DNA of 64,000 nucleotides from the UHGV virus genome UHGV-0167633; one strand, 5' to 3'. The stretch comes from a virus. Positions 23,001 through 26,000 of this stretch are shown here, one piece after another. Made by a program: the position numbers. Within the stretch, counting starts at the first letter, position 1. The number at the start of each line of letters is the position of its first letter.

Positions 23001-26000
23001 GTTGATAACTTGAATACCTGCTCGACTCGATCGCCAGAGGCTGAAGAACTATCAAATCCGCTTAATATTGAAGGATTAAGGGTTCGCCCAATTGTTGGTC
23101 TGTTTTTCTTTGACATGGGGGTTTCTTACTCCTCAGTTAGATCTGATAAATTCAATACGGTCAAAAACTGCTTTAGCAAAATCTTCCGCGGCAATTCGCG
23201 CGTTCTTCAATGCATCAGCACTACCAACATACGTTGCCGGGTTAGCTGAAATAACAGTGTCAAAAGACTCGCCGCAACGTTCAAAACCGTCAAGGCGAGG
23301 GAGGACGACATCGAGCATATCCCCACCGAACACTTCTTTAGCCAGGCTATGGCAATACTTATGATCTGCCTTGTTACTCAACTTGGACATAAAACCAATG
23401 TTAGTCGCAAGCTGGCACTCGCAGCCTTCATCCGAAATGAGTTTCACCAACTCAGGAAGGCGGGCAACGTATTTAAGCGATGAGTGGAAATCGACAGTTG
23501 CTGGCGGCAGAGGTGTAAACAGTATATTGGCCGAGGCCAAAGCATTTTTCAGGAAGGCGTCAAGGTGAGGACCACTATCAACGAGGATAAAGTCATAATC
23601 GCTCTTCAGCTTATCAATCACATTTTCTTTCAGGACAGCATGGATGTTCTGACCCGGTAGATGCTCATTGCACAGCTCTCTCCAATCGGATGCAATAAAG
23701 GCATCGTCAATCGACGCAGGCATAACGTCAACCCCAGGTACAACAGAAGGAACAATAAACTCCTCTAACAGCTCTTCACGGCTTACATTCTGCAACATAG
23801 CCTGTGCAGATGTTGCGTTTACGATACCAATAGAGTGTTTATGGCTTAAAAACATCGTTGCTGAAGATTGCGGATCAAGGTCAATAACCAGAATCCTTAA
23901 ATCCTCCATAAGAAGATGAGGGTGAGCACGCATTGCATGCGCCAGAGAAACCGTCGATACAGTTTTTGACACACCGCCTTTAAGATTGGAGATGAAAATC
24001 ACATAAGCTTCGCTGTAGCGATCCCGGTATTTTGGCACTCCGCGATGTTCATATATGTCAATGATGTTCTGAATTGACATCGCATATTTCATTGAAGAGC
24101 CAGCAGGGCGTTTATCGAAAACATAACCCTTTTCTTCCATTTCACTTACGGCATAGTCAACGTTCGCTCGAGTCAGTAGAGGCAATTTTGCCAGTGCCGC
24201 TTTCGCATAGACCTGGTAAAACTCGTTCGCGTGTAGCTCATCCTTTTGCAACTGTACTTGTTCAGTCAGAACATTGAGCATTCTGTTTGCTCTTTGAGCA
24301 ACCTTGTGAAGCTGGCTGGAATCACTCATCGAAAGTCATCCTTTATGCTGTATTTTTGAATTTAATTAAAAATGCTGCATAAAATAATAATGTATGCGTA
24401 GATGCTTGTACATAGCATTCTCTGCATGTTTGGTTCATTTTGCACGATAGAGAGTTGCAAGGAGGGCACAAAAAAGCCCCGTTCAGGGGCATCAGCGTTA
24501 TTTGTTAAGAGCTGCGAATAATCGTTCGAAATCGATAGTATCTATAGCACGCGTTAGCGCCGGAAGTTCAGCCTCAAAGCACCCGTTTCGATCGTAAAAG
24601 AAGGGACCGAAGAGCGAGGCATGTTGGATTCTACTTCGCCCCAGTCCGGACACACAGTTAAGCCCATTACCAGCTAAAAGGCTAAAAAACTTCTCTGGAT
24701 TATCGTGGTAAAGCTGGGAATCAATGATGGCGGTTAACTCTTCCATAGGGAAGCACACCCGCCCTGTCTCCCAGGGATATTTAGTCCGAAGCGTAAACAT
24801 CGCTTTCAGCAATTCACATTGAGCGCGGATCGCGTCAGGTTCATAGCCAGATATGGAGACATAAGCCACATCCCTCATTCCTGCGTCATCTTTGAAAGTC
24901 ACGATAGAAGTAACATCCAGTTCTTTTTCGAAAGAGCGAGCAGCATCTACTGGACGCTGAAGTAAATCATTCGACTTAATTCGCTCGAGAATCCCTCCCC
25001 ACATATCATTTAGATATTCGATATGAGCCAAAACCTTATCAAGACACTCTCGTGTAAACCATTCAGTATGCCCGCCACCGGCGCTTTTCTCCCACGGCGC
25101 ATTCCAGGGGAAAAAGGTTGCGTGTAAAGCCCGCTCAAGATTAACCATTGCCAAACGCGTACCACGATAGACCCGTGAAAGCGCAAAATCGGGACTCACT
25201 TGTAGCCCTTTAAACCGTGCCAATGGACCACATGAAATGCCGATTTTAAAAGTATCTCCGTTCTCCGGCACCAGAACGTAGAGGTAGTGTTGTTTCTCTT
25301 CTTGCATATCAATACCACTGCTTGATGAGAACCGCGCAAATGTTGACTATGCGCGAAAGTTAATGTGAATAGTTGACTATGCGCGATGTGACTACAGTCA
25401 AAAGTTGACTGTAGTCGATTTAACTCCACCAAAAATCGACTATGTAAGATATTGTCGGGAGAAACGTTGACTATACGCGATGAAATGACCCTAAAAGCCA
25501 TCTCAATAGCGACTTGCAGAATATTGACGCCAGCAAAAATCCACCAGCGTCAACGAATGTCGCCTATAGTCAACTTCTCGCTATCGCATATAGTCAATAT
25601 TATGGATTGCGCTTATGGATCTGGAAGCCGATTTTCCTGCCGTTTTTTATCTCTGAAAATTTAAGATATTCAATAGCTTCCAAATCTTTCATAGCTTTTC
25701 TGATAACGCTATTTTGCACGCTAACGGATGATTTGAGATTAAGCCTTGCTCTAAGGCGCTCAATGCTGACAGGTGCCGGGTTGGCGGGTAGAGCCTCAAA
25801 GAATGTATACAGCACCTTGGCCGTCTCTTTGCGCCCGAGCTTATCCAGCATCTTCAGCTTCAGGATTCGCTTATAGTCAACATAGTAAAGTTCAGATAGC
25901 TGTTTCTGCGGCTGGATCTCGATAACATCAAGCTCGGTATTCAGGCTGCTATATGCCAACAAGTTGACGTTAATGTTATTGAGATGACCTTTTGCCGCCG

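Follow-up and report, generated by a model that had tools for sequence, protein, structure and literature searches.

The window analysed here, a stretch of 64,000 nucleotides of the virus genome UHGV-0167633, is a P1-like phage-plasmid and carries within a plasmid replicon an open reading frame (ORF) of 269 amino acids (minus strand, 24498..25307, ATG start) that encodes a nuclease-like protein of the T5orf172 family. The gene is a fixed component of the p0111 replicon cassette, at whose sharp left edge it lies; it is dispensable for replication and maintenance yet kept by long-term purifying selection, and the putative specificity domain of its product evolves much faster than the neighbouring genes. 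Judging from its sequence, the product is a putative site-specific DNA endonuclease that belongs, within the GIY-YIG superfamily, to the T5orf172 branch. The explanation that we favour, with a probability of about one half, is that it resembles either a homing endonuclease or Odn, the nuclease of phage ICP1, and that it would cut rival alleles of the replicon. The gene is common and annotated, and the literature already notes that the p0111 cassette contains it; what is functionally unstudied is a T5orf172 nuclease with an orphan putative recognition domain inside a plasmid replicon, as a search of the literature returned no functional study of this gene and no link between T5orf172 and phage-plasmids.

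Domains of the encoded protein

The N-terminal catalytic domain (residues 1-105; 24993..25307, minus strand) is matched over residues 8-85 by the Pfam profile T5orf172 (PF10544), whose gathering cutoff is 20 bits, at a score of 27.5 bits (E 4.7e-6). The same profile gives 33.3 bits for Odn, an experimentally proven nuclease, and 28.0 bits for the sole relative outside the Escherichia coli clade of this gene, P0004, which is 44% identical to the window protein and is encoded on a 95.7-kb P1-like contig, L003 (Logan ERR2144811). The initial annotation had placed the N-terminus in the T5orf172/GIY-YIG group by its motif residues, and these are indeed present (Y8-L9-Y10, K21-I22-G23, R31, and E82 within GGHTEWF). 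When the window protein, P0004 and Odn are aligned, Y8, Y10, K21, G23, R31, E58, H62 and E82 are invariant, and E58 falls opposite E180 of Odn, the position that is changed in the catalytically inactive variant Odn* (PMC8263062). The Pfam match is to T5orf172, and the canonical GIY-YIG family (PF01541) is not matched. Over its full length the protein matches PHROG 2876 (phrog_2876, function unassigned; E 1e-190), and hundreds of records already bear the annotation "GIY-YIG nuclease family protein". NCBIfam and PADLOC profiles gave no match to the 269-residue protein, its sole sequence match in the PDB was marginal (1ywl, E 1.2), and a search with the N-terminal domain by itself brought up nothing beyond the same family and truncated alleles.

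The rest of the protein is of another kind. As the initial annotation had remarked, the C-terminal part is unrecognisable by sequence: its last 170-174 residues or so had no match in Pfam (E up to 10), NCBIfam, PADLOC or the sequences of the PDB. An exhaustive phmmer search of 1.84 billion representative proteins with this region found only P0004 and fragments, and a word-indexed search, searches of GTDB genomes and IMG/VR, and tblastn against plasmids and phages yielded near-identical copies, fragments and the one 44% homologue. Profiles for Rep, DUF6945 and RepA_N did not match the window protein either.

A nuclease, a linker and a second domain are observed in succession in the two AlphaFold2 (AF2) models, and the architecture is predicted to that extent. 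Their quality is moderate, as the alignment behind them holds three sequences; mean pLDDT (predicted local distance difference test score) is 61.5 for the full-length model, with 42-67 in the N-terminal domain, and 68.8 for the C-terminal model, whose predicted template modelling (pTM) score is 0.69. The linker (residues ~106-129; 24921..24992, minus strand) has pLDDT below 50 in both models and is 21% identical to that of the L003 homologue. Behind this disordered stretch the C-terminal model has a folded alpha/beta core; the orphan domain here comprises residues ~130-269 (24501..24920, minus strand). Its best structural matches are the winged-helix domains of iteron initiators, although the resemblance is weak, and in a BFVD search a phage "plasmid replication initiation" protein was the second-ranked match. 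From these models we regard a DNA-binding domain of the winged-helix type as probable, and a specific kinship to the iteron initiators as possible.

The replicon cassette and its nuclease gene

From 20000 to 30000 the window is collinear with phage P1 (gene 22 for the tail sheath, gene 23 for the major head, parB, parA, upfA, mlp and ppfA), with the exception of the replicon itself. When compared with P1 by blastn (NC_005856), 2,249 bp of the window (24432-26680) stand in place of P1 61316-62806, a block of 1,491 bp that comprises incA, repA and the incC iterons. Identity to P1 is 98.3% in the match that ends at 24431 and 95.6% from 26681 on. The left boundary (24431..24432), where the homology to P1 stops sharply, is the one that the nuclease gene adjoins; it lies 16-20 bp upstream of the -35 box of the P1 par promoter (Ppar), and the sequence from 24300 to 24428 is 100% identical to P1. 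The right end of the cassette, in contrast, is a gradient. A GATC-rich stretch with a DnaA box (26681..26950), which by pairwise alignment is a diverged homologue of P1 oriR, has ~75-80% identity to P1 over the GATC repeats and the DnaA box and ~90% up to 26950, and beyond it, inside upfA, identity is ~99%. The sharp left end and the graded right end suggest recombination ends with different histories.

The nuclease gene is subject to a presence/absence polymorphism: canonical P1, whose flanks are 95.6-98.3% identical, lacks it, as the initial annotation had supposed. When the gene was compared with P1, the match was confined to Ppar and the start of parA, and nothing is annotated in P1 between incA iteron 1 and Ppar. 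The further claim, that the gene had been inserted into the maintenance region of P1, held only in part. Its position between iterons and parA stands, whereas the repA and iterons beside it are of the p0111 type; it is the whole replicon block that differs and not the gene alone. A simple insertion into the P1 replicon is ruled out, since the entire incC-repA-incA block has been replaced. The cassette is of the type called "p0111", which is related to RepFIB and found in P1-like phage-plasmids such as RCS47, SJ46, JL22 and phi456; its initiator, RepA', shares 41% of its residues with P1 RepA and 44-49% with initiators of the RepFIB type. The p0111 repA has also been reported from 13 S. Agona genomes, in a chromosomally integrated plasmid without phage structural genes (10.1101/2025.09.12.675607).

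The gene encoding RepA' (25600..26484, minus strand; 294 amino acids from the ATG at 26484) was identified by its matches to Pfam Rep3_C and Rep3_N and to PHROG 775, and corresponds to the annotated RepA of RCS47. A mechanical ORF call begins at a TTG at 26541 (313 amino acids), whereas the RepA annotated in RCS47, with 294 amino acids, starts at the ATG at 26484; the 19 codons upstream of this ATG overlap the promoter-proximal iteron region. Repeat searches located five origin (incC-like) iterons with 21-bp spacing at 26564..26664, and six downstream (incA-like) iterons at 25342..25598, with the core GTTGACTATrCGCGA, which is also the core in L003. Four of the downstream iterons have one orientation (25342, 25372, 25404 and 25466) and two the opposite one (25558 and 25582), and they form inverted pairs with the origin iterons. 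The iteron nearest the nuclease gene (25342-25356) is 34 bp upstream of its ATG. One more iteron-like 15-mer, TCGCTTATAGTCAAC, lies within the repA' coding sequence (25867-25881) and is retained in the divergent L003 (at 9611-9625); it may serve RepA as an internal site of binding or reflect mere coding constraint.

On its other side the nuclease gene ends in a stop codon (24498-24500) directly followed by a hairpin (GCCCC-TGAAC-GGGGC, 24490-24476) and six T residues, a terminator-like element (24466..24490, minus strand) found by pattern scan and folding that would close the repA'-nuclease transcription unit before Ppar; its fold energy is unexceptional (z = -1.4). The layout proposed in the initial annotation, a 269-residue gene with a terminator between the iterons and the parA promoter, is thereby recovered. 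In the interval between repA' and the nuclease gene the pattern scan detected no terminator-like site, and transcription of the gene probably continues from repA' and stops at the terminator of the gene itself. Outside the cassette follow the par promoter and operator (24330..24431, minus strand), identical to P1 Ppar and its operator as annotated in NC_005856, and then parA (23133..24329, minus strand), with parB next in minus-strand order. An Rfam scan of 23800-27200 gave a sub-threshold chance match only, and base composition (content of guanine plus cytosine) gives no foreign signal for the nuclease gene.

Outside the window, the distribution of the gene follows that of RepA'. By tblastn, 402 PLSDB plasmids match the protein, 401 of them at 90-100% identity and the remaining one, from Cupriavidus, in the N-terminal part; about 398 PLSDB plasmids have this type of RepA', and 12 phage records contain the gene. 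Among 5,426 complete E. coli genomes it is present in 412 (7.6%), and 359 of the same 5,426 have the IncY repA-incA region. The association between the gene and the RepA' type is essentially one to one, and all contexts that we inspected, including a 17-kb deletion derivative, have the order repA'-gene-parA. As a side observation, the DNA of the gene is 100% identical to that of plasmid NZ_CP122941.1 (96.6 kb, from the porcine E. coli ETEC1701). An E. coli plasmid protein in NCBI, P0005, is a chimeric ORF in which an unrelated N-terminus of 79 amino acids is joined to residues ~106-223 of the nuclease, and may be either the product of a rearrangement or a domain swap.

The contig L003 extends the association beyond this set. 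Its DNA is ~70% identical to that of the window, and it has the same RepA' type, the same iteron core and the same order repA-gene-parA-parB. Since the gene occupies the same position in so distant a replicon, its association with the replicon must be old, without a life of the gene outside it. PLSDB, when searched with the RepA and the DNA of L003, contained no RepA' replicon without the gene and no L003-like plasmid; the 398 records of the RepA' type all lie at the same distance from L003, and two PLSDB records have a RepA' at 80-90% identity. L003 also carries, further downstream, genes for a PrlF-type antitoxin and a HigB-like (Gp49) protein.

Inactivated alleles, selection and other functions considered

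We surveyed the alleles of the gene at 45 loci from IMG/VR and GTDB, 44 of which are not cut by a contig end. Of two clusters of truncated proteins, P0003, which lies at a contig end, was not counted as a pseudogene, and P0002, labelled "partial" by NCBI, was excluded likewise. Intact copies were found at 36 of the 44 loci and inactivated ones at eight, by four independent events: W68* at one locus (L042), S112* at five (L010, for example), Q228* at one (L040, which is phage SJ46) and, at one more (L045), an insertion of the IS200/IS605 family of insertion sequences, with TnpA and TnpB, after codon 98. The S112* allele is borne by pO111 of E. coli O111:H- 11128 (L010), the very reference of the p0111 type, and leaves a stand-alone T5orf172 domain of 111 amino acids; clusters of this 111-residue product hold 151 and 43 sequences, compared with 1,241 of full length. 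An essential role in replication is ruled out by nonsense and IS-disrupted alleles in stable elements, and the frequent nonsense alleles argue against a role in addiction or essential maintenance.

Within the E. coli clade, the pairwise ratio of nonsynonymous to synonymous substitution rates (dN/dS) is 0.30 for the whole nuclease gene (0.28 for the N-terminal and 0.31 for the C-terminal part), 0.04 for repA' and 0.001 for parA. In the comparison of the window with L003, synonymous sites have reached saturation; dN is 0.71 for the C-terminal domain and 0.28 for the N-terminal domain of the nuclease, 0.13 for RepA, 0.07 for ParA and 0.26 for ParB. In terms of identity, the N-terminal domain is conserved at 64%, the C-terminal domain at 33% and RepA at 83-84%, while the iteron core is unchanged and both nuclease ORFs are intact.

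These data bear on the alternative that the gene is a decaying relic, a once mobile gene of the homing-endonuclease kind that became trapped in the cassette and, now functionless, persists by its linkage to repA'. The four independent inactivations among 45 loci and a dN/dS that is relaxed relative to the neighbouring genes are what one would expect of such a relic, as is the lack of homologues anywhere else. We nonetheless consider it unlikely, because most of the sampled alleles are intact, the dN/dS of 0.30 is well below 1, as it is in both domains, and an intact ORF of 269-270 amino acids with invariant catalytic residues persists across lineages that are synonymously saturated. Such persistence requires long-term purifying selection.

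Alternatively, the protein could be a factor intrinsic to the replicon, whose initiator-like C-terminal winged helix binds the iterons of its own cassette or RepA' and thereby modulates copy number, handcuffing or the insulation of the par promoter, with the T5orf172 domain serving as a nickase or being non-catalytic. One would not expect a protein that reads the iterons of its own cassette to have so fast-diverging a C-terminal domain next to an unchanged iteron core, i.e. 33% identity between two lineages whose RepA proteins are 84% identical. In addition, the dN/dS of the nuclease gene is about seven times that of repA', and plasmids that are stably kept, including the p0111 reference, as well as phage SJ46, have nonsense or IS-disrupted alleles. 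Such a function therefore seems quite improbable to us.

The same pattern of divergence could be read as a sign of defence, which the initial annotation had named, together with anti-defence and addiction, among the functions to consider: the protein may be a single-gene effector against phages or plasmids, with a C-terminal domain that recognises invading DNA, which is then degraded, so that both the lysogen and the phage-plasmid are protected. Its nuclease-like domain has intact catalytic motifs, its specificity domain is fast-evolving, as in genes engaged in conflict, and it is conditionally dispensable, with pseudogenes in existence. However, none of the 5,027 PADLOC models (PADLOC-DB 2.0) matched it at E up to 1, and no partner sensor or immunity gene is found next to it. 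Apart from the replicon region itself, none of the variable cargo regions that have been listed for P1-like elements (PMC9603915) contains the gene, and it is bound to one replicon type instead of being shuffled among hotspots. A defence function is for these reasons improbable, in our view.

Rival replicons as proposed targets and comparison with known systems

Cleavage of rival replicon alleles, the explanation that we prefer, would make the gene an accessory of the p0111 cassette, a selfish or competitive passenger outside the replication machinery, and would assign a role to each part of its product: catalysis to the N-terminal domain (1-105) and recognition of DNA to the fast-evolving C-terminal one (~130-269), the two being joined by a flexible linker. 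When an element of the p0111 type meets a P1 replicon of the IncY type, or another competitor, the nuclease would cut a sequence that its own cassette does not contain. The obvious candidate for this target is the IncY allele, since its locus is the same and so are the homologous flanks on either side. The break might then be repaired from the p0111 element via the shared parA and oriR/upfA arms, so that the nuclease gene and repA' are copied into the rival, in the manner of freestanding homing endonucleases; alternatively, the rival replicon might be destroyed, as Odn does to the origins of elements resembling phage-inducible chromosomal islands (PLE). A more specific version, in which an initiator-like winged helix reads the origin of IncY P1 or of another iteron plasmid and the nuclease cuts there, with the rival lost or converted to p0111, is a tentative one that we hold to be rather unlikely as stated. 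The replicon type does switch often on the core phylogeny of P1-like elements, with 17 changes inferred among 193 elements (PMC11165635), and T5orf172 and other nuclease genes have been located at the boundaries of genetic exchange, beside essential genes (PMC10448857).

Several points weigh against this explanation. No copy of the gene was found without the whole cassette or at other sites in plasmids, phages, IMG/VR or GTDB genomes; hitch-hiking with repA' accounts for the linkage equally well, and independent mobility was not seen. The pattern scan recognised no promoter belonging to the nuclease ORF. The C-terminal domain has no sequence similarity to RepA', to L003 RepA or to P1 RepA (hhalign probability 0.1%), and there is therefore no sign of a captured Rep DNA-binding domain, the hallmark of Odn; as for its structural matches, the winged helix is a ubiquitous fold, and the PDB has a surplus of RepE54 entries. 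Next to the junction, on the side homologous to P1, 130 bp agree with P1 at every position, and no immunity polymorphism is visible there. Finally, that the protein is an active nuclease, that its C-terminal domain binds DNA, what it would target and any effect by drive or exclusion are all things that we infer.

Genes for resistance and virulence are often found on P1-like phage-plasmids, which commonly carry them. If the nuclease does act on a rival replicon allele, it would provide a mechanism by which the two replicon types of P1 replace each other so frequently, extend the principle of Odn from a lytic vibriophage to enterobacterial plasmids, and give plasmid incompatibility a further layer, based on a nuclease; the more specific version would also amount to allele drive. 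The gene also offers a compact putative nuclease whose DNA-recognition domain would be of a new kind. Should it be no more than a hitch-hiking relic, it is an ordinary annotated hypothetical gene.

Among known systems, the cassette as a whole is similar to iteron replicons of the RepFIB/P1 type, since it has repA' between five iterons at the origin and six downstream, together with a DnaA box and GATC repeats; in P1 and the listed RepFIB records, in contrast, no gene for a nuclease separates the control iterons from the partition operon. The protein itself can be compared to I-TevI and the Seg proteins of phage T4, in which an N-terminal GIY-YIG catalytic domain is followed by a flexible linker and a C-terminal DNA-binding domain, and freestanding GIY-YIG homing genes are known to promote the co-conversion of flanking markers. 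The order of domains in the window protein (catalytic, linker, putative DNA-binding) is the same, whereas its match is to T5orf172 and not to PF01541, and its putative DNA-binding part has no sequence similarity to theirs.

A closer parallel in family are the freestanding T5orf172 homing genes found in ICP1, in T5-like phages and in others (PMC10448857), which likewise combine T5orf172 with a modular DNA-binding region (a putative one here), and with which the window gene shares a place beside essential replication genes and at an exchange boundary, a presence/absence polymorphism, fast divergence outside the catalytic part and pseudogenised copies. Of those homing genes, however, 87% carry zinc-finger domains of the CapR, DUF723 or DUF4397 families (PMC10448857), whereas the window protein has none of these and an orphan alpha/beta domain instead. 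The window gene is also single-copy, tied to one cassette and part of a temperate phage-plasmid, and the independent spread to other sites or backgrounds that is the hallmark of homing genes was not observed, every copy being in the repA'-gene-parA context.

Odn (ICP1 gp88; PMC8263062) differs from the window protein in that its DNA-binding domain is N-terminal, where the putative one here is C-terminal, and in that this domain is homologous to PLE RepA (Pfam DUF6945, 120 bits), whereas the window protein lacks sequence similarity to Rep proteins and its structural likeness to them is weak. Odn also belongs to the genome of a lytic phage, and the window gene to the inside of a plasmid replicon. 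Both, on the other hand, are small stand-alone phage proteins with a T5orf172 domain and the same Tyr, Lys-x-Gly, Arg and Glu-x3-His residues, and in both this domain is fused to a second one, which in Odn reads the iterons of a rival origin and in the window protein has its best structural matches among iteron-initiator domains. In Odn, then, a T5orf172 domain has been re-aimed at the iterons of a competitor (PMC8263062), and it is in this respect that the gene of the p0111 cassette may resemble it.

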